Source: Patescibacteria group bacterium (GTDB lineage Bacteria > Patescibacteriota > Minisyncoccia > Phycocordibacterales > UBA9973). From it: 55,306 nt of DNA. The stretch spans positions 74,776-130,081 of the forward strand of contig JAZKBO010000001.1 of assembly GCA_040388575.1 (NCBI GenBank), written 5' to 3'. The notes under the pieces are model-generated. The model saw only the letters and a list, made by a program, of their open reading frames with translations, made no database searches and had not been told where the DNA came from. Of this stretch, positions 10,551-44,427 are shown piece by piece. Both the position numbers and the translations under genes were made by a program. How positions within the stretch are numbered: the first letter of the stretch is position 1; every line of letters begins with the position of its first letter.

Positions 10551-11216
10551 TTAGTACCTGATCCAGTTGTGCGTCGCGATGACGCTCACCACCGCAAACG
10601 TACTGTCATGGTCACGAGTGGCCATGATGATCGCAGTGGTGCCGCCGGCGACCGCGCCAGCGATGAGGAAGTTGCGGACCTTGTGCGACTTCGAGGTGGC
10701 GACGGATGGAGTGAAGTCACGGCCATCTTTGCCGTTCTTTCCATCACGACCGTCCTTGCCGTCCTTCCCGTCAATGCCGTCTTTTCCATCCCGGCCGTCA
10801 CGTCCAGCAAGACCAGCAATCATGAGTGGCGCGGGTTTTGGGAACCAGTCAGAGCGTACGGGGTTTCCGCAACCGTAGACCCAGAGGGCCTTTCCCGTTG
10901 CCTTGTCGACCACCACGGGTACGCCAGGGTAGGCGATACAGGTGACGTCCTTGCCGTTGCCAGAACCATAGGTGATCTTCTGATCCGCTGCGTTGATCAC
11001 CAGGGCTTCCGTTTCCGGGTTGATCTGACGGTTCTTGTTCACTGGGTCGGCACCGACATTGCAGCGGTTGATCGAGGCTGCCTGCGCTGCCGGCTTGGTC
11101 TGGTCGAAGCTCACCCCAGCCGTAGCCGAGTCGAACTTGTCGTTGGTTTCCGCCGCCGCCGTCGTGGCGAGGGTCAGGAGCGCGATGGCCACAAGGGCCG
11201 TTAGCATTTTCTTCAT
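10551..11216 (-). CDS. secreted collagen-like repeat protein with C-terminal TM anchor (foreign composition)
   Basis: 221 aa. Sec-type signal MKKMLTALVAIALLTLATTAAA/E, eleven consecutive G-X-Y triplets (GLAGRDGRDGKDGIDGKDGKDGRDGKNGKDGRD), and the hydrophobic segment FLIAGAVAGGTTAIIMA. GGAGG lies 6 nt before the ATG. Confidence 0.75.
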   Translation of the reverse strand: MKKMLTALVAIALLTLATTAAAETNDKFDSATAGVSFDQTKPAAQAASINRCNVGADPVNKNRQINPETEALVINAADQKITYGSGNGKDVTCIAYPGVPVVVDKATGKALWVYGCGNPVRSDWFPKPAPLMIAGLAGRDGRDGKDGIDGKDGKDGRDGKNGKDGRDFTPSVATSKSHKVRNFLIAGAVAGGTTAIIMATRDHDSTFAVVSVIATHNWIRY

Positions 11217-16795: not shown

Positions 16796-16804
16796 CAAGT
16801 TTAG

Positions 16805-16832
16805 TTGATTTTTAAATAAAAAGTGGTATTCT
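16805..16832 (+). promoter_or_regulatory. promoter driving cassette B
   Basis: TTGATT (16805-16810), 16-nt spacer, TGgTATTCT with the hexamer at 16827-16832. Confidence 0.45.
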
Positions 16833-16881
16833 TTTACCGGACACGTCTACGGATAGATAATTCATTTGACGGAGGTACACG

Positions 16882-17091
16882 ATGGACCAGCGTACAAGGA
16901 TAGTCGAAAACCAGTGCGCCAAGCACTACGGCACGGCGATTCTGGCCCGCCCGCCCCACCACATCGAGGAGCCCACCACGGCGCCGAAAAGCGTCGCCAC
17001 GGCGGCTGCGAAGAAGCCGACGACCCTCGAGAAGTTCAGCGGTCCGCCCGACCTTCAGCCGATCTCCAGTTCGGATCCGCGATGGAAGTGA
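16882..17091 (+). CDS. hypothetical 69-aa ORF B1 (may be non-coding)
   Basis: GGAGG (16871-16875) lies 6 nt before the ATG. The product is Pro/Ala-rich with no recognisable fold. High GC makes chance ORFs likely. Confidence 0.3.
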   Translation: MDQRTRIVENQCAKHYGTAILARPPHHIEEPTTAPKSVATAAAKKPTTLEKFSGPPDLQPISSSDPRWK

Positions 17092-17291
17092 AGCAGGCGG
17101 CCGCCAAGCAGCTCAACCTACTCGCCGTCGGGGAGCCATCATCATTCACTCCACCGCGCCGACCCACACCTTCACTCCAGACACTCAATCTGCGGCGGGA
17201 TGTGTGTATCGAGCTCGCCCGGCGACGTCGCCGAGCACAAATTGCGGCCCGACTCGCCCTCAAGCGCGCCGAACGCAACAGTCAGTCGTAG
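17082..17291 (+). CDS. hypothetical 69-aa ORF B2 overlapping B1 by 10 nt (may be non-coding)
   Basis: ATG at 17082 sits inside the end of B1 (..GCGATGGAAGTGA..). Very basic C-terminal helix ELARRRRRAQIAARLALKRAER. No independent SD. Confidence 0.2.
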   Translation: MEVKQAAAKQLNLLAVGEPSSFTPPRRPTPSLQTLNLRRDVCIELARRRRRAQIAARLALKRAERNSQS

Positions 17292-17299
17292 TCATCATC

Positions 17300-17340
17300 G
17301 CGCCGGCCGCGGATCTTTTCCAAAAAAGATCCCCCGGCGC
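17300..17340 (+). terminator. 16-bp GC-rich composite stem-loop closing cassette B
   Basis: GCGCCGG/CCGGCGC outer stem and GGATCTTTT/AAAAGATCC inner stem with loop CCAA. No T-run follows. Confidence 0.45.
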
Positions 17341-17351
17341 GAAAACGTTTA

Positions 17352-37971: not shown

Positions 37972-38000
37972 TTGACTTATCCTTTTTAGGGTGCATAATT
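37972..38000 (+). promoter_or_regulatory. promoter driving cassette C
   Basis: TTGACT (37972-37977), then TGCATAATT (37992-38000). The -10 reads CATAAT or ATAATT with a 16 or 17 nt spacer. Confidence 0.4.
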
Positions 38001-38045
38001 AGATTTTAGGAACCACTCGATCTTCAAATAAGGAGAAACTCGACG

Positions 38046-38513
38046 ATGAAGAATTTTCGCGCGCTTTTCGAAGCGGAACTCGAAGGGACTGACGGCCAGG
38101 CGACGATCATCGGTGCGAGGGAGCTGTTGCCCACCAAGCACATTGACCCTCGTTTCGAAGCCATCCACAAGTCTGGGCCGGCGACACCGCCGACCAAGAT
38201 CCAGGTACAGGAGCTGGCTGTTAACGGAGAGCTCCTTGACCTTCTCCAAGACGTCTCCGCATTCGATACGCTGCCTTTCATGCAAAGCCAGATCGTCCAG
38301 GTTTGTCATCGGCACCCTGACTGGCTTCAGGCAAACGGAATGCCCAACCTCTTCCTTTGCAAGATGGGGGAGGCCAACTCGGACCTGTTTGTGGTCAGCG
38401 CCTTTCTGGACAACTGGAGCCGCTTCTTCTTCATGAGGCGCGAGCTTCATGAAAGGATTCTCTGGCGCGGGCGGCAGTTTCATCTCCGCTTCTTCTTCAA
38501 GGTGAGGCGATAG
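38046..38513 (+). CDS. hypothetical 155-aa cytoplasmic protein of foreign composition
   Basis: AAGGAG (38030-35) lies 10 nt before the ATG. No TM or signal and no family recognised. The odd Arg/Phe-rich C-terminus could reflect a frameshift. Confidence 0.5.
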   Translation: MKNFRALFEAELEGTDGQATIIGARELLPTKHIDPRFEAIHKSGPATPPTKIQVQELAVNGELLDLLQDVSAFDTLPFMQSQIVQVCHRHPDWLQANGMPNLFLCKMGEANSDLFVVSAFLDNWSRFFFMRRELHERILWRGRQFHLRFFFKVRR

Positions 38514-38526
38514 TCGCCCAAAATTA

Positions 38527-38567
38527 GGAGGGAATCAACCCTCCCATCCCCGGACCAAGGTTCGGGG
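38527..38567 (+). terminator. two tandem GC hairpins closing cassette C
   Basis: GGAGGG-AATCAA-CCCTCC (38527-38544) and CCCCGGAC-CAAG-GTTCGGGG (38548-38567). No clear T-run. Confidence 0.4.
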
Positions 38568-38601
38568 ATTACTCATTATATTCAAAGGTAATTATTCGGG
38601 T

Positions 38602-38794: not shown

Positions 38795-39985
<1,191 letters not shown>

Positions 39986-40004
39986 TTAATCTAGCTTATA
40001 GTTC

Positions 40005-40424
40005 ATGGCAACAACAGAAACAAAAGTAAAAAAACCGAAAGCAAAAACTGCTGCTCCTAAAACTCCTAAGGCTTCTAAGATTTCTGCGAGGAAAGATAAG
40101 GCTGAAGGTGGTGAGGGTAAGGTAATATTGCGTATCCGAGTTCGTGCTTACGAGAGCAAGATCTTGGATGCCTCGGTCAAACAAATAATGGATACCGCTA
40201 CTCGCTATGATGCGAATATTGTGGGTCCAGTACCGTTGCCAACAGAAATAAAAAAGTACACCGTCAACCGCGCGTCTTTCGTTTACAAGAACACTCGCGA
40301 GCAATTCGAAATTCGCGTGCATAAGAGGTTGATCGACATCCATAATCCAAATCCAAAAACAATCGAAGCCCTCACCAACTTGTCACTTCCTTCCGGAGTC
40401 GACATCGACGTGAAGATGATGTAA
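40005..40424 (+). CDS. rpsJ: 30S ribosomal protein S10 with ~37-aa Lys/Ala/Pro-rich N-terminal extension
   Basis: The core ILRIRVRAYESKILD...RLIDI is preceded by MATTETKVKKPKAKTAAPKTPKASK... Confidence 0.9.
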   Translation: MATTETKVKKPKAKTAAPKTPKASKISARKDKAEGGEGKVILRIRVRAYESKILDASVKQIMDTATRYDANIVGPVPLPTEIKKYTVNRASFVYKNTREQFEIRVHKRLIDIHNPNPKTIEALTNLSLPSGVDIDVKMM

Positions 40425-40436
40425 CTATAATTTAAA

Positions 40437-41051
40437 ATGAAATTCATTTTGGCCACAAAAGAAAATATGATGGAATATTTCACCCCAGAAGGTGAGGTTG
40501 TTCCAGTGACCATCGTGAAAGCGGGTCCAATTACTGTTACCCGAGTATTTTCGAAAGACAAAGACGGTTATGATTCCGTACAAGTAGGCTTCGGCAATCA
40601 ATCCAAGCACAGAATCAACAAGCCAGAAGCTGGCGTCATGAAGGACGCACAGTATCGAACGCTCAAAGAATTCAGACTCAAAGTAACTGATAAAAGCGAA
40701 GCCAAAGTAGGTGATGTCATTGACGTCAGCGCCTTTGCTCCCGGAGACAAGCTCCAAGTTTCAAGTATTTCCAAGGGTAAAGGCTTCCAAGGTGTGGTTA
40801 AGCGCCATGGCTTTGCTGGTGGCCCACGAACTCATGGTCAGAAGCATTCTGAACGCGAGCCAGGTTCCATCGGCGGAGGTCTTCGAACTCATGTGCCGAA
40901 GGGTATGCGCATGGCTGGCCGCATGGGCTCCGACCGTATCACTCAAAAGAATTTGAAAGTAGTTATGGTTGATCCAGAAAATAATTTAATGTTGATCAAG
41001 GGCGCAATTACGGGCAAGCGTGGCACTCTGGTTGAGATAGTCGCAAGATAA
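40437..41051 (+). CDS. rplC: 50S ribosomal protein L3
   Basis: GKGFQGVVKRHGFAGGPRTHGQ motif. Confidence 0.95.
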   Translation: MKFILATKENMMEYFTPEGEVVPVTIVKAGPITVTRVFSKDKDGYDSVQVGFGNQSKHRINKPEAGVMKDAQYRTLKEFRLKVTDKSEAKVGDVIDVSAFAPGDKLQVSSISKGKGFQGVVKRHGFAGGPRTHGQKHSEREPGSIGGGLRTHVPKGMRMAGRMGSDRITQKNLKVVMVDPENNLMLIKGAITGKRGTLVEIVAR

Positions 41052-41055
41052 ATAT

Positions 41056-41754
41056 ATGGAAGCAAAAACCCCAACCAAAACTAAAGAGGCAATGAGCGCT
41101 AAGATATACGACCAAAAGGGTAAAGATGCCGGCAGTATTGATCTTCCAGCTAAAGTTTTCGGCGTGAAGTGGCGTGCTGACTTGGTCCACCAAGTAGTAG
41201 AGAGTATGCGCAGTAATAAGCGCGCAGGCACAGCGGACACTAAAGGCCGCGGGGAAGTGCGTGGAGGTGGCCGTAAACCTTGGAAACAAAAGGGTACCGG
41301 TAGAGCTCGTCACGGATCATCTAGAAGCCCTATCTGGGTAGGTGGAGGTGTAACTCACGGTCCACTTGCAGAGAAGAACTACAAGAGGAAAATTTCCAAG
41401 AAAATGCGAGCTCAAGCACTATTTTCCGTACTTTCAAAGAAGATGAAAGACGGGGAAATACTCTTCGTTGATTCTTTAAATATTACACCTATCAAGACCA
41501 AGACTGGCGTGCAGGTAGTAAATAGCTTGGCCAAGGTTTTGAAGTTTAACGCAGGATCTAGAAGTGTAAAGCCAAGAATCCTGACTGCTTTATATGAACG
41601 TAACCCAAATGCTGAAAAAAGCCTACGTAATATCCCAACTCTTGAAATAGCCTTTTTGAAAAATCTAAATCCACTAGATGTCCTTAATCACAAATACCTT
41701 TTGATCGAAAATCCAACAGAATCTGTTAAATTTTTAGAATCCCGATCCAAATAA
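41056..41754 (+). CDS. rplD: 50S ribosomal protein L4
   Basis: GGGRKPWKQKGTGRARHGS motif. Confidence 0.95.
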   Translation: MEAKTPTKTKEAMSAKIYDQKGKDAGSIDLPAKVFGVKWRADLVHQVVESMRSNKRAGTADTKGRGEVRGGGRKPWKQKGTGRARHGSSRSPIWVGGGVTHGPLAEKNYKRKISKKMRAQALFSVLSKKMKDGEILFVDSLNITPIKTKTGVQVVNSLAKVLKFNAGSRSVKPRILTALYERNPNAEKSLRNIPTLEIAFLKNLNPLDVLNHKYLLIENPTESVKFLESRSK

Positions 41755-41762
41755 AATAATTT

Positions 41763-42032
41763 ATGTCTACAATTATTAAAACCCCAAGAATTACCGAAAA
41801 AGCATCCAACCTCCTAGAAGGCCGGGTTTATACTTTTGATATTACGGGGAGCGCCAACAAAAATGAAGTCAAGAAAGCAGTTTTCGAAATTTATAAAGTC
41901 AAACCCGTTAAAGTCAATGTGCTCCGAGTGCCTAAGAAGAATACGATGGTGCGCGGCAAGACCTTTACCCGAGGCGGTGGACGCAAGGCATTTGTATATT
42001 TAAAAGAAGGGGATAAGATCGAGTTCATCTAA
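41763..42032 (+). CDS. rplW: 50S ribosomal protein L23
   Basis: 89 aa with IIKTPRITEKA...KAFVYLKEG. Confidence 0.9.
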   Translation: MSTIIKTPRITEKASNLLEGRVYTFDITGSANKNEVKKAVFEIYKVKPVKVNVLRVPKKNTMVRGKTFTRGGGRKAFVYLKEGDKIEFI

Positions 42033-42871
42033 TGAAAACATACAAACCGACAAGTAAATCCCGAAGACAAATGAGCCACGTTACCTACCGTGGAGTCTTG
42101 ACCAAGACCGAGCCGACAAAGGCGCTCCTTCATGGTTTCCGCCGTATGGTGGGCCGCAACAGTGCAGGCCGCATTACCATGAGGCACAAGGGTGGCGGAC
42201 ACAAGCGCCTCTACCGAGATGTCGACTTTTTATACAACAAGCATGATATCCCAGCTAAAATAACTTCAGTTGAGTACGATCCTAACCGTTCTGCTTTCAT
42301 CGGGCTCGCTATCTATAAAGATGGAGAGAAGAGGTATGTGGTGTTGCCGAAATCTGTAAAGCCAGGGGACTCTTTTATTGTTTCCGAAAAAGCGGAATTA
42401 AATCCTGGAAACAGATTACCACTCAAAAATATTCCAGTAGGAACTTTTGTTTACAATGTGGAGATCAAGCCAAAGGGTGGCGCTAAGATCGGCCGCTCTG
42501 CAGGAATCTTTGCTCAAGTAGTAGCGAATGCGGAAGGTTATACAAACCTGAAGATGCCATCGACTGAAGTGCGCAAAATAAATGAAAATTGCTGGGCGTG
42601 CGTAGGTACAGTTTCAAACGAAGAATATCATTTGCAAAATTTCGGTAAGGCTGGACGATCTCGCTGGAAGGGTATCCGCCCTACAGTACGCGGTACTGCC
42701 ATGAACCCAGTAGACCACCCATACGGTGGAGGTGAAGGCCGCCAAGGCCGAGGCACCAAGCGCCCTAAGACTATGTGGGGTAAAGTTACTGGTGGCAGGA
42801 AGACCCGCACTCCAAAGAAGTACTCAAACATTTTCATCGTTTCTCGAAGGAAGACTGGCAAGAAGGAGTAA
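42032..42871 (+). CDS. rplB: 50S ribosomal protein L2
   Basis: GRITMRHKGGGHKRLYR and RGTAMNPVDHPYGGGEG motifs. Confidence 0.97.
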   Translation: MKTYKPTSKSRRQMSHVTYRGVLTKTEPTKALLHGFRRMVGRNSAGRITMRHKGGGHKRLYRDVDFLYNKHDIPAKITSVEYDPNRSAFIGLAIYKDGEKRYVVLPKSVKPGDSFIVSEKAELNPGNRLPLKNIPVGTFVYNVEIKPKGGAKIGRSAGIFAQVVANAEGYTNLKMPSTEVRKINENCWACVGTVSNEEYHLQNFGKAGRSRWKGIRPTVRGTAMNPVDHPYGGGEGRQGRGTKRPKTMWGKVTGGRKTRTPKKYSNIFIVSRRKTGKKE

Positions 42872-42876
42872 AGTAT

Positions 42877-42904
42877 TTGCTTTATTCTCAATAAAGAATA
42901 GAAT
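42877..42904 (+). promoter_or_regulatory. promoter at left edge of cassette D
   Basis: TTGCTT (42877-42882), 16-nt spacer, TAGAAT (42899-42904). Confidence 0.4.
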
Positions 42905-42910
42905 TATTCA

Positions 42911-43069
42911 CCAGAGGTCCCCATGGAAATATTCCAAGGCGTTGACGATGAAGAGCATCTCACGCGCGACCCGCTCAGTAACTGCTGCGACGCGTATCTG
43001 TATGTTGCAGACTCACGCCGCCGCAAACGCCGAAGCTTCCGACACCATCGGAGCCCGGCGTTTTTTTTT
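42911..43069 (+). ncRNA. candidate ~160-nt GC-rich small transcript (promoter to intrinsic terminator)
   Basis: Bounded by the promoter at 42877-42904 and a strong terminator. The only ORF (42923..) has no stop before the terminator. Local hairpin TGGAA-ATA-TTCCA. No family recognised. Confidence 0.3.
43028..43069 (+). terminator. strong rho-independent terminator inside the rplB-rpsS gap
   Basis: CGCCG/CGGCG (43028-32 / 43056-60) plus TTCCGA/TCGGAG inner stem, 5-nt loop, followed by T9 (43061-43069). Confidence 0.8.
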
Positions 43070-43083
43070 ATTAACACTTTTAC

Positions 43084-43111
43084 TTGCGTAAAAATAAAAG
43101 AAGAATACACT
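43084..43111 (+). promoter_or_regulatory. possible internal promoter of cassette D second unit
   Basis: TTGCGT (43084-89), 16-nt spacer, TACACT (43106-11), in the AT-rich spacer right after the terminator. Confidence 0.3.
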
Positions 43112-43209
43112 TATTCTCAGATCGCAACCCGATCGGAAGGGGGACCGTCACAGAGGCAAGTCTCTATCCACGTTCGGTAAGTTCACAGTCACGTCACTCG
43201 GAGGTTCTC

Positions 43210-43458
43210 ATGCCAAGTCGTTTCAATGGCTGCTCAAGTCGGGATCACGAGGCGCACATGATGAAGGACGCCGCCGCCTTTGGCCGGCGCCCGGATCGTG
43301 TCCGTCATCTGTCGTTGGCGCCCACCACCAGGGTGGTGCCGCGCGAAGCGCCGCTCGTGTCGCTCCGACCGAAGGCTCCGCCGGACGCCGGGCAGGGAAG
43401 CATCAATCTCATGGCCGGGAACAACAGCAGTCGTGCGGCCGTGAGGGGGGTGATCTAA
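43210..43458 (+). CDS. hypothetical 82-aa ORF D2 (may be non-coding)
   Basis: GGAGG (43200-04) lies 5 nt before the ATG. The product is Arg/Pro/Ala-rich without a recognisable fold. Chance ORFs are likely at this GC. Confidence 0.3.
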   Translation: MPSRFNGCSSRDHEAHMMKDAAAFGRRPDRVRHLSLAPTTRVVPREAPLVSLRPKAPPDAGQGSINLMAGNNSSRAAVRGVI

Positions 43459-43523
43459 CTATCTCCCGCAGCGCTAACACCGTTGCGGGTCGCGTTCGAC
43501 CTTGCGTGTTTGCTTCAACATCC

Positions 43524-43542
43524 AGCTAACAACGTGTTAGCT
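43524..43542 (+). other. perfect 8-bp hairpin AGCTAACA-ACG-TGTTAGCT
   Basis: Seen directly. A second hairpin, CCCGCA...TGCGGG, is at 43465-43489. The GCTAACA heptamer occurs in both. Confidence 0.5.
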
Positions 43543-43551
43543 CTCGCCAAC

Positions 43552-43598
43552 CACCCGGTTCTCGACTTTCTGTCGGGACCCGGGTGTGTCTATTTTTA
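43552..43598 (+). terminator. terminator closing cassette D
   Basis: CACCCGG/CCGGGTG outer stem and TCGAC/GTCGG inner stem, followed by TGTCTATTTTTATTT. Confidence 0.6.
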
Positions 43599-43599
43599 T

Positions 43600-43627
43600 T
43601 TGACTTTCTAAGGGTATTTGCTATTAT
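43600..43627 (+). promoter_or_regulatory. promoter of rpsS and downstream ribosomal genes
   Basis: TTGACT (43600-05), 16-nt spacer, TGcTATTAT with the hexamer at 43622-27. Confidence 0.5.
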
Positions 43628-43676
43628 GAAGCCAAGCTCTTAGGGGCCTATTTTTATACTTGTTTAAGTTAACTAA

Positions 43677-44033
43677 ATGACCAGATCAATCAAAAAAGGC
43701 ATAAATACAGACGAAAGGCTCCTCAAAAAGATCGCCGGCAAAAACCCGCTCCAGACAGGTATGATCAAGACCTGGAACCGCGCCTGCCAAATCTCCCCAG
43801 AGATGCTTGGTTTTAATTTTGGCGTTTATAATGGTAAGACCCACATCGAAGTCCTCGTAACGGAAGACATGGTAGGGCACCGACTTGGCGAATTTTCACC
43901 AACTAAGAAATTCATTAAGCACGGCGGTAAGATGCAAAAGGAACTTGAACAGAAGAAGAAGGAAGCTGAAATAGCTCAAGCGCAGTCCGCAACAGTAGCC
44001 GCAACTGGCGCCGCTGCAGCTGCCAAAAAATAA
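43677..44033 (+). CDS. rpsS: 30S ribosomal protein S19 with Lys/Glu/Ala-rich C-terminal extension
   Basis: MTRSIKKG...VYNGKTHIEVLVTEDMVGHRLGEF, then a ~30-aa tail. Confidence 0.95.
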   Translation: MTRSIKKGINTDERLLKKIAGKNPLQTGMIKTWNRACQISPEMLGFNFGVYNGKTHIEVLVTEDMVGHRLGEFSPTKKFIKHGGKMQKELEQKKKEAEIAQAQSATVAATGAAAAAKK

Positions 44034-44052
44034 TATTGAATAATAAATTAGC

Positions 44053-44427
44053 ATGAAAGCATATTTACACAATTACAGACAAGCTCCTCGAAAAGTCCGC
44101 CTCGTAGCAGGACTCCTAAAGAAAAAGAGCGTACCGCAAGCCATTGTGGAATTGGATTTTCTAGCTAAGCGCGCAGGTGGCCCGATCAAGAAACTTTTAC
44201 TTTCAGCAGTAGCTAATGCCAAGCAAGTTGGTATAGAAAAGGAGAATTTAATGATCCAGGATTTGCGAGTGGATAAAGGTGTAACCATGAGGCGTATGAT
44301 GCCAGCAGCAATGGGCTCCGGTCACCGCATCAACAAGCGTACCAGTAATGTCACGCTAGTATTAGTCGAGAAGGTTGTGGAAGTTAAAAAGTCCAAGCAA
44401 GTATCTAAGTCAAAAGCAAAGAAATAA
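44053..44427 (+). CDS. rplV: 50S ribosomal protein L22
   Basis: 124 aa with RQAPRKVRLVAGLLKKK... Confidence 0.9.
   Translation: MKAYLHNYRQAPRKVRLVAGLLKKKSVPQAIVELDFLAKRAGGPIKKLLLSAVANAKQVGIEKENLMIQDLRVDKGVTMRRMMPAAMGSGHRINKRTSNVTLVLVEKVVEVKKSKQVSKSKAKK

Follow-up and report, generated by a model that had tools for sequence, protein, structure and literature searches.

The window analysed here, a stretch of 55,306 nucleotides (nt) from contig JAZKBO010000001.1 of assembly GCA_040388575.1, comes from a Candidatus Nomurabacteria/Paceibacterota genome of the candidate phyla radiation (CPR), and its ribosomal protein cluster has the order fusA, tuf, rpsJ, rplC, rplD, rplW, rplB, an 805-nt spacer, rpsS, rplV, rpsC and onward. 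The spacer (42872-43676) is the subject of this work. It is preceded by rplB (uL2; 42032-42871, + strand), an open reading frame (ORF) of 279 amino acids (aa) that closes the upstream ribosomal transcription unit, and followed by rpsS (uS19; 43677-44033, + strand; 118 aa), the first gene of the downstream unit, which has no Shine-Dalgarno (SD) sequence. The GC content of the spacer is 0.53, compared with 0.44 in the flanks, and reaches a maximum of 0.73 at 43300-43399. An initial annotation, made from the sequence alone, had described a GC-rich spacer of 805 nt parting rplB from rpsS and had read it as an exceptional insert, which itself would terminate and re-initiate the ribosomal operon. 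The observation was confirmed, with rplB ending at 42871 and rpsS starting at 43677; the interpretation is only partly supported, and comparison with relatives suggests that the insert fills a slot at an older operon boundary.

As a check, the initial annotation had proposed to compare the distance between both genes in related genomes. Among 80 species-level relatives (Nomurabacteria/Paceibacterota loci with an rplB 84-92% identical to that of the window, rpsS being 75-95% identical), both genes were present in 67 loci, and the gap between them spanned 86-3841 nt when measured directly and 98-3841 nt by an approximate estimate; its median was about 529 nt, as opposed to median gaps of -6 to 36 nt at the seven other junctions of the cluster. 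Five loci (L002, L032, L062, L067 and L068) had the cluster physically broken at rplB|rpsS, with no rpsS within 4 kb and genes for proline biosynthesis, a ComEC-like protein, superoxide dismutase, a rodA-like and a folD-like protein found after rplB. A long and variable gap is the rule in this Nomurabacteria-type clade, and the premise of the window as an exception had to be given up. The final 60-70 nt before rpsS were conserved nearly everywhere as TTGACW, 13 nt, TTTGCTAWTAT, about 8 nt, a hairpin AAGCTCGTTAGGAGCT and then TTTTTGTTT. The promoter in this block, P3 (43600-43627, + strand; TTGACT-N13-TTTGCTATTAT), is of the extended -10 type and can be written as TTGACT-N16-TATTAT with an upstream TG, matching the consensus at 10 of 12 positions and being one of the top two among all promoter matches within 12 kb. 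Its motif was detected as a strict pattern in 60 of 68 spacers, typically 56-110 nt from rpsS and with TTG, TTTG.TA and AT invariant, bearing out the separate rpsS promoter that had been claimed; conservation strongly supports P3 as a predicted sigma-70-type promoter. Straight after P3 follows a hairpin with a U-run (43636-43655, + strand; GCUC-UUAG-GGGC then UAUUUUU), in which the clade consensus AAGCUCGUUAGGAGCUUUUUGUUU is weakened to 4 pairs with a folding energy of -4.5 kcal/mol. When 38 distinct sequences of this hairpin were compared, 91.7% of the cells were paired, and one pair covaried from A-U to G-C in 5. In about 60 related loci, the hairpin and U-run lie about 8 nt past the rpsS promoter (window 43628-43660), ahead of an rpsS devoid of an SD sequence, and the putative leader resembles an attenuator or the leader of a ribosomal protein operon. 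In L016, L026 and L045, another conserved hairpin element, AGTCGCGCCAATAGGACGGTTGCGCGACATGATTTCGCTAAATCA, is inserted downstream of the leader hairpin, ahead of the start of rpsS.

The shortest spacers (86-130 nt) contain little beyond promoter and leader, mostly with a preceding terminator hairpin, and of 60 spacers scanned heuristically for a hairpin with T-run, 40 had one no more than 110 nt from the rplB stop. Since P3 and its leader are conserved even in the 86-130-nt spacers, termination and re-initiation would be older than the insert of the window, and the claim that the insert itself terminates and re-initiates the operon does not hold. The split of the operon at rplB|rpsS is thus predicted to be ancestral to the clade, with the insert sitting between both signals and not causing it.

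Between these signals, the window carries two small units, both on the + strand. The promoter-like site of unit 1, P1 (42877-42904), consists of TTGCTT (42877-42882), 16 nt and TAGAAT (42899-42904), and an SD sequence GAGGT (42914-42918) precedes an ORF of 85 codons with its ATG at 42923 (42923-43180). The ORF product contains 16% lysine plus arginine (K+R) and 13% aspartate plus glutamate (D+E), with class means of 25% and 9% for ORFs of this slot, and searches against Pfam and PHROG returned no match; this ORF has probably been truncated, has decayed or does not code for a protein. Folding of 42905-43075 gave a z-score of -2.8, and the region includes T1 (43026-43069), composed of a 14-bp interrupted stem (fold 43026-43062) and a T9 run (43061-43069), which directly abuts the stem on the sense strand, 157 nt past the rplB stop. 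Its folding energy of -18.5 kcal/mol corresponds to a z-score of -4.06, with none of 200 shuffled sequences being as stable. A stem more stable than chance with an adjoining U-tract is what defines an intrinsic terminator at the sequence level, and T1 is predicted to be a canonical sense-strand one. It was the only hairpin with T-run that the heuristic scan detected in the spacer of the window, and as the window has no other terminator near rplB, T1 would be the first terminator after this gene.

Unit 2 starts with a second promoter-like site, P2 (43084-43111), made up of TTGCGT (43084-43089), 16 nt and TACACT (43106-43111), which was recognized from its sequence only, matches the consensus weakly and is not conserved elsewhere. 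A leader of about 90 nt (43100-43215), with no more structure than shuffled sequences (z 0.24), leads to GGAGG (43200-43204) at an ideal spacing to the ATG of ORF82 (43210-43458, 82 codons), which has a GC content of 0.65, 0.57 and 0.77 at codon positions 1, 2 and 3. Behind it, a stretch of three hairpins and a T-rich tail (43465-43599) was observed, with folding energies of -15.4 kcal/mol for 43465-43489, -8.3 kcal/mol for 43524-43544 and -26.1 kcal/mol for 43550-43588, and the whole 151-nt tail (43455-43605) reached a z-score of -5.75. The last hairpin belongs to T2 (43550-43599), whose stem has a z-score of -6.7 and is followed by UGUCUAUUUUUAUU. Between the stem and the U-tract of T2 lie about 4-9 nt, a five-U run beginning 7 nt past the stem, so that T2 may be described as a terminator-like element, less canonical than T1; a simple terminator scan did not list it. 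A GC-rich hairpin with T-run just upstream of the rpsS promoter, the place of T2, was found in 20 of the 60 spacers analysed.

Most of this anatomy had been given in the initial annotation, and the promoter-like site of unit 1 with an ORF running through the terminator, as well as TTGCGT-N16-TACACT, GGAGG and the 82-codon ORF of unit 2, were found where it had placed them. The strong terminator T1 stood as to position, stability and T9 run, with a stem of 14 interrupted pairs and not 11; the three hairpins with T-rich tail were all present, with the U-tract after the last one offset; and the sequences of the two claimed promoters P1 and P2 were there, being weak by the generic sigma-70 consensus. 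The small RNA or non-stop peptide that it had favoured for unit 1 is a putative product, as is an 82-aa protein of unit 2. A second assembly of the same population (GCA_040384165.1; L081), a 5.4-kb scaffold with an rplB product identical to that of the window, reproduces the insert on both sides of the T1 junction, with 100% identity over 42872-43060 and 43051-43676. Identity remains at 100% over 39180-43060, save for a gap of ten undetermined bases (N10) and a mismatch patch in tuf, and over 43051-44374. The patch (L081 650-780, window 39829-39958, at the 3' end of tuf) comprises 25 mismatches in 130 nt, mostly three bases apart, inside an otherwise identical 3.9 kb, and points either to recombination along this tract or to an assembly that changes over to another strain or species here.

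In the relatives, the parts of the slot upstream of the rpsS promoter have almost no sequence in common between species, except short palindromes and some promoter-leader modules, and the content is wholly replaced between species that share 84-92% rplB identity. SD-ATG motifs in the spacers were counted 62 times in sense and 18 times in antisense orientation, and SD-led ORFs of at least 25 codons 44 and 15 times, with products averaging 25% K+R and 9% D+E; the slot ORFs of the relatives encode 27-80 aa and are very rich in lysine and arginine. A promoter motif, TTGC[ATG]T[TA]...TA[TAG][AT][AC]T, occurred 13 times in sense and never in antisense orientation in the spacers of relatives and window, usually 7-66 nt before an SD-ATG, and P1 is one of these instances. 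The peptide motif LPxWx[RQK]R was found five times in 1.37 million six-frame residues, exclusively in spacers and on the + strand; two of the five members gave a sub-threshold match to DUF7239 (best E 8e-4), and a profile search from their alignment led to two proteins only, both from the rplB|rpsS slot. Comparison of a 36-aa ORF with the motif MCCRR between L028 and L049 revealed 9, 9 and 25 differences at codon positions 1, 2 and 3, with 16 synonymous and 11 non-synonymous codon changes, which marks at least this micro-ORF as a gene under purifying selection.

A structured 5' leader with 13 pairs, 5 of them with compensatory changes, is common to eight cassettes in seven genomes with unrelated ORFs. 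Its two arms, GAAYCUGYUCUU on the 5' side and AGCAGRUUC on the 3' side, enclose an inner CCCAGCGNUGGG hairpin and are followed by GGAGG-AUG; the leader is carried by L006, L010 (two copies), L017, L023, L028, L036 and L060, with weaker instances in L066 (5312-5365) and L049 (5702-5765). A covariance model of this leader (R1) detected two further copies, all copies being located in the slot in sense orientation, and an Rfam search of nine related loci gave no family match, making it a candidate for a new cis-regulatory RNA. Larger fillings of the slot include an AbiEii toxin, an IS200-like Y1 transposase (spacer of L008, 866-1540) and a NUDIX gene. Palindromes resembling repetitive extragenic palindromic elements, GC-rich and exemplified by CCCCTTATCAGGGGAGG and TCCCCCTGACAAGGGGGA, occur in either orientation across the spacers of L003, L016, L018, L042, L060 and L066.

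Both window units show the arrangement of the relatives' cassettes, with promoter-like site, SD, ATG and a downstream terminator, all on the + strand. A strong SD was found in 3 of 59 long ORFs of the window, and native mRNAs are suggested to be mostly leaderless or to have a very short leader; in many native genes, a TATAAT-like box lies 6-12 nt upstream of the ATG. Strong SDs were present in front of all ORFs of the GC-rich islands, that is, 10551-11216, 16882-17091 and those starting at 42923 and 43210, and because of these SDs and their GC-rich makeup in an SD-poor host, the window units look foreign.

From these data, we regard the spacer, with a probability of about 0.6, as a permissive slot at an operon boundary, whose content turns over fast and in this genome is a unique filling by two small, sense-oriented, foreign-like units. 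The S10 cluster of the clade would then comprise two transcription units meeting at rplB|rpsS, of which the upstream one would end at an intrinsic terminator and the downstream one would start at the conserved extended -10 promoter with its short hairpin leader, leaving the DNA between terminator and promoter as the permissive slot with its fast turnover. In the window, this slot would hold two self-contained, GC-rich and SD-led units. Unit 1 (P1, SD, ORF and T1) looks truncated or decayed, with T1 now presumably ending the rplB transcripts; unit 2 (P2, the leader of about 90 nt, GGAGG, ORF82 and three hairpins including T2) would represent the full small-gene cassette architecture of the relatives; and P3 would start rpsS transcription, as in the relatives. 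Both units would be transcribed and ORF82 translated, and horizontal acquisition and replacement, not divergence, would account for their content. Translation of ORF82 is favoured by the GGAGG spacing, the GC content of 0.77 at third positions and an architecture as in relatives; its orphan status, its ordinary length, the other open frames and the unstructured leader speak against it. More tentatively, and as a possibility that we would at present rather doubt, the slot may be home to micro-gene cassettes that are exchanged rapidly and form a class not yet described, with the window units as divergent or decaying members. Such cassettes may combine a promoter of native type with a strong SD in an otherwise SD-poor genome, a K/R-rich protein of 27-80 aa and a terminator, and often also with a conserved structured leader at the 5' end, and their micro-proteins could be ribosome- or nucleic-acid-binding accessory factors, co-regulated with ribosome synthesis. 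As the insert has no sequence likeness to other spacers, the window units would belong to this class by architecture alone.

Several results weigh against our main reading, in which two small units fill the slot in the window. P1 and P2 fall under the threshold of a generic sigma-70 scan, with -35 hexamers matching at 3 of 6 positions, and the ORF of unit 1 stays open through T1, with no closure ahead of it. The product of ORF82, with 16% K+R and 7% D+E, is less rich in basic residues than the average slot ORF with 25% K+R, and its length is ordinary for a sequence of 66-70% GC, other frames being open over 59-143 codons. No blastn or tblastx match to 42872-43595 was obtained in other spacers, whole loci or the rest of the window, and the motifs LPxWxRR and MCCRR are absent from the window. 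The window leader was rejected as a copy of the shared cassette leader, with model R1 finding none in the window. A word-indexed search of 5.8 billion proteins with ORF124 and ORF82 gave no homologue, and an exhaustive HMMER search of 1.84 billion representatives with ORF82 gave as its sole real match a 66-aa gene call of the same sequence, which an exact look-up did not find on record; two non-self matches were false positives, arising from summed weak matches to repetitive proteins. Finally, the two assemblies disagree at the link between stem and T-run of T1, the one place of disagreement within the insert: after GGAGCCCGGCG (window 43060), the window continues with TTTTTTTTT and L081 with GACCACCATCGTGCG, and the first copy of the stem in L081 has no T-run.

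Further searches were equally negative. ORF82 had no match in Pfam or PHROG, the insert had no DNA match among plasmids and phages, and exact 22-24-mers gave 0 matches for unit 1 in JGI metagenome contigs and 0 for ORF82 in IMG/VR. Rfam gave nothing relevant, either at gathering score in the whole window or at E<=10 in 42700-43800, the best score in the region being 18.5 bits against a gathering score of 70. A Pfam search with all stop-free segments in the six frames of the insert remained without match, and the insert was rejected as a piece of a known gene in all frames tested. A miniature inverted-repeat transposable element or insertion sequence was likewise rejected, with no terminal inverted repeats at the boundaries and no transposase domain in any frame. 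The only flanking direct repeat matches at 12 of 14 nt and lies inside promoter-like sequence (GTATTTGCTtTATt at 42873-42886 and GTATTTGCTaTTAT at 43614-43627), and the tails of T1 and T2 are alike (43060-43072 and 43588-43600); repeat and tail likeness may be due to chance or may be the trace of a duplicated terminator-promoter junction.

An insert that is an orphan at the DNA, protein and RNA-family level, in a slot whose content is fully replaced between close relatives, might also be explained as inert captured DNA, with the GC-rich cores being foreign debris, for example from co-resident GC-rich bacteria, that entered a harmless site by illegitimate recombination and carries its signals incidentally, without any functional expression. 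The passage of the unit 1 ORF through the terminator fits this explanation, and a direct example of capture, if real, is provided by L081, where 153 extra nt and an N10 gap (L081 3885-4047) intervene at the T1 junction before the scaffold resumes with GAGCCCGGCGTTTTTTTTT. The extra 153 nt are 92-97% identical to part of a gene for a membrane 'hypothetical protein' of about 238 aa, which is located on 12 soil or rhizosphere contigs (L082-L093) with 55-61% GC and otherwise nothing in common with the window, and the foreign piece is flanked by a 10-nt direct repeat (GAGCCCGGCG). The piece is either a strain variant with a captured fragment of a neighbour's gene or a scaffold chimera, the latter being suggested because the scaffold is visibly noisy (two N10 gaps and the tuf patch). 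Debris would, however, not give rise to the 3.4-fold sense excess of SD-ATG motifs or the 13:0 distribution of the promoter motif across relatives, and neither a shared structured leader nor purifying selection on an ORF would be expected. In addition, a random fragment of a bacterial gene would usually match a Pfam domain, which no frame of the insert did. We therefore consider captured debris unlikely, and prefer the filling of a slot by small units.

Structured RNAs classically stand out as GC-rich islands in AT-rich genomes, and both units might instead be non-coding RNA genes, giving small RNAs of about 160 nt (to T1) and about 480 nt (to T2) from P1 and P2, with the ORFs as by-products of GC-rich sequence. 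This would be in line with the folding of 42905-43075 and 43455-43605, with the unit 1 ORF having no stop ahead of the terminator and with the orphan status of ORF82. The Rfam search, however, gave no match with a convincing E-value either, the leader of unit 2 is no more structured than its shuffles, and the strong folding is due to a row of simple hairpins past a stop codon, as in a 3' untranslated region with terminator. Moreover, the frame of ORF82 has its highest GC content at the third position and GGAGG at ideal spacing, and ORFs are also encoded by the corresponding units of relatives, where one is under purifying selection, so that we hold non-coding RNA genes for improbable. An assembly artefact, in which the GC-rich segments would be chimeric joins from other organisms and rplB and rpsS would truly lie close together, could be suspected from the foreign GC-rich sequence with repeat and N10 gap in the L081 spacer, and appears very improbable, as the sequences of both assemblies are identical to either side of the T1 junction, 67 metagenome-assembled genomes from many studies have expanded spacers of consistent architecture at the same junction, the ends of the insert are native-type AT-rich promoter and terminator sequence, and the 12 soil contigs do not match the insert.

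Besides the spacer, the window contains further GC-rich islands at 37973-38600 (fusA|tuf), 16800-17345 (tRNA-Leu|msrB) and 10551-11216 (next to tRNA-Arg), which share a plan of promoter-like site, SD, GC-rich ORF, strong hairpins and the native promoter of the next gene. The fusA|tuf island, just upstream of a tuf promoter of conserved type, has AAGGAGA, its own promoter-like site, hairpins and an ORF of 155 aa (38046-38513) with a GC content of 0.73 at third and 0.37 at second positions, for which no match was found in Pfam, PHROG or the viral sequences of IMG/VR. The ORF at 10551-11216 encodes a secreted collagen-repeat protein with phage tail-fibre-like PHROG matches.

No part of bacterial gene order is regarded as more stable than the ribosomal protein cluster, which also serves as the backbone of CPR phylogenomics, with 16 ribosomal proteins expected on one contig. 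In this clade, a built-in operon boundary within it acts as a hotspot of insertions and even of rearrangements of the chromosome, which bears on genome binning and alignment, on the organisation of ribosomal protein synthesis and on the search for small proteins and leaders specific to a lineage. For the window, the 805-nt insert would be an orphan filling of this slot and not the cause of the split. A full-text literature search retrieved no description of the rplB|rpsS slot or its micro-gene cassettes.

Among known systems, integration hotspots and variable islets resemble the slot in having a fixed site between core genes, species-specific content with complete turnover and an occasional toxin-antitoxin or transposase gene, here AbiEii and the IS200-like element. 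The slot differs in lying inside a ribosomal protein super-cluster, in having mostly fillings of 0.2-1 kb with no integrase or recombination site seen, and in being filled mainly by tiny basic ORFs that are SD-led and come with promoters and terminators of their own. Integron cassette arrays are similar as to short tandem units of one orientation with unrelated ORFs and quick gain and loss, whereas the slot units possess their own promoter and terminator and share no attC-like sites, an integron integrase not having been specifically searched for; an integron was rejected for the window insert, whose hairpins are short perfect stems of 8-14 bp without a common core, with short repeats at chance level and units bearing their own promoters. 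The structured non-coding RNAs of GC-rich intergenic regions in AT-rich genomes resemble the window insert in that it, too, is a GC-rich, well-folding intergenic segment, here in a genome of 40-44% GC; the insert differs in having no family match, an SD-ATG-ORF architecture and a structure mostly residing in terminator-like hairpins. The slot ORFs of relatives, with 27-80 aa, a very K/R-rich composition and a location among ribosomal genes, are comparable to the lineage-specific tiny basic ribosomal proteins bS22, bL37, bL38 and Thx; bL38, for instance, has 5.6 kDa, and its gene shares an operon with genes for ribosomal proteins (PMC11851116). Each of these proteins is conserved throughout its lineage, whereas the slot ORFs are replaced between species and ORF82 is a mildly basic orphan. 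The leader of the rpsS unit differs from that of the E. coli S10 operon, regulated by L4, in preceding rpsS and not rpsJ, in its stem of 5-7 bp and in having no Rfam leader family; regulation by a bound protein would be putative. What it has in common with such ribosomal protein operon leaders is the arrangement itself, a promoter, P3, and within about 8 nt a conserved hairpin with U-run before the first ribosomal gene.

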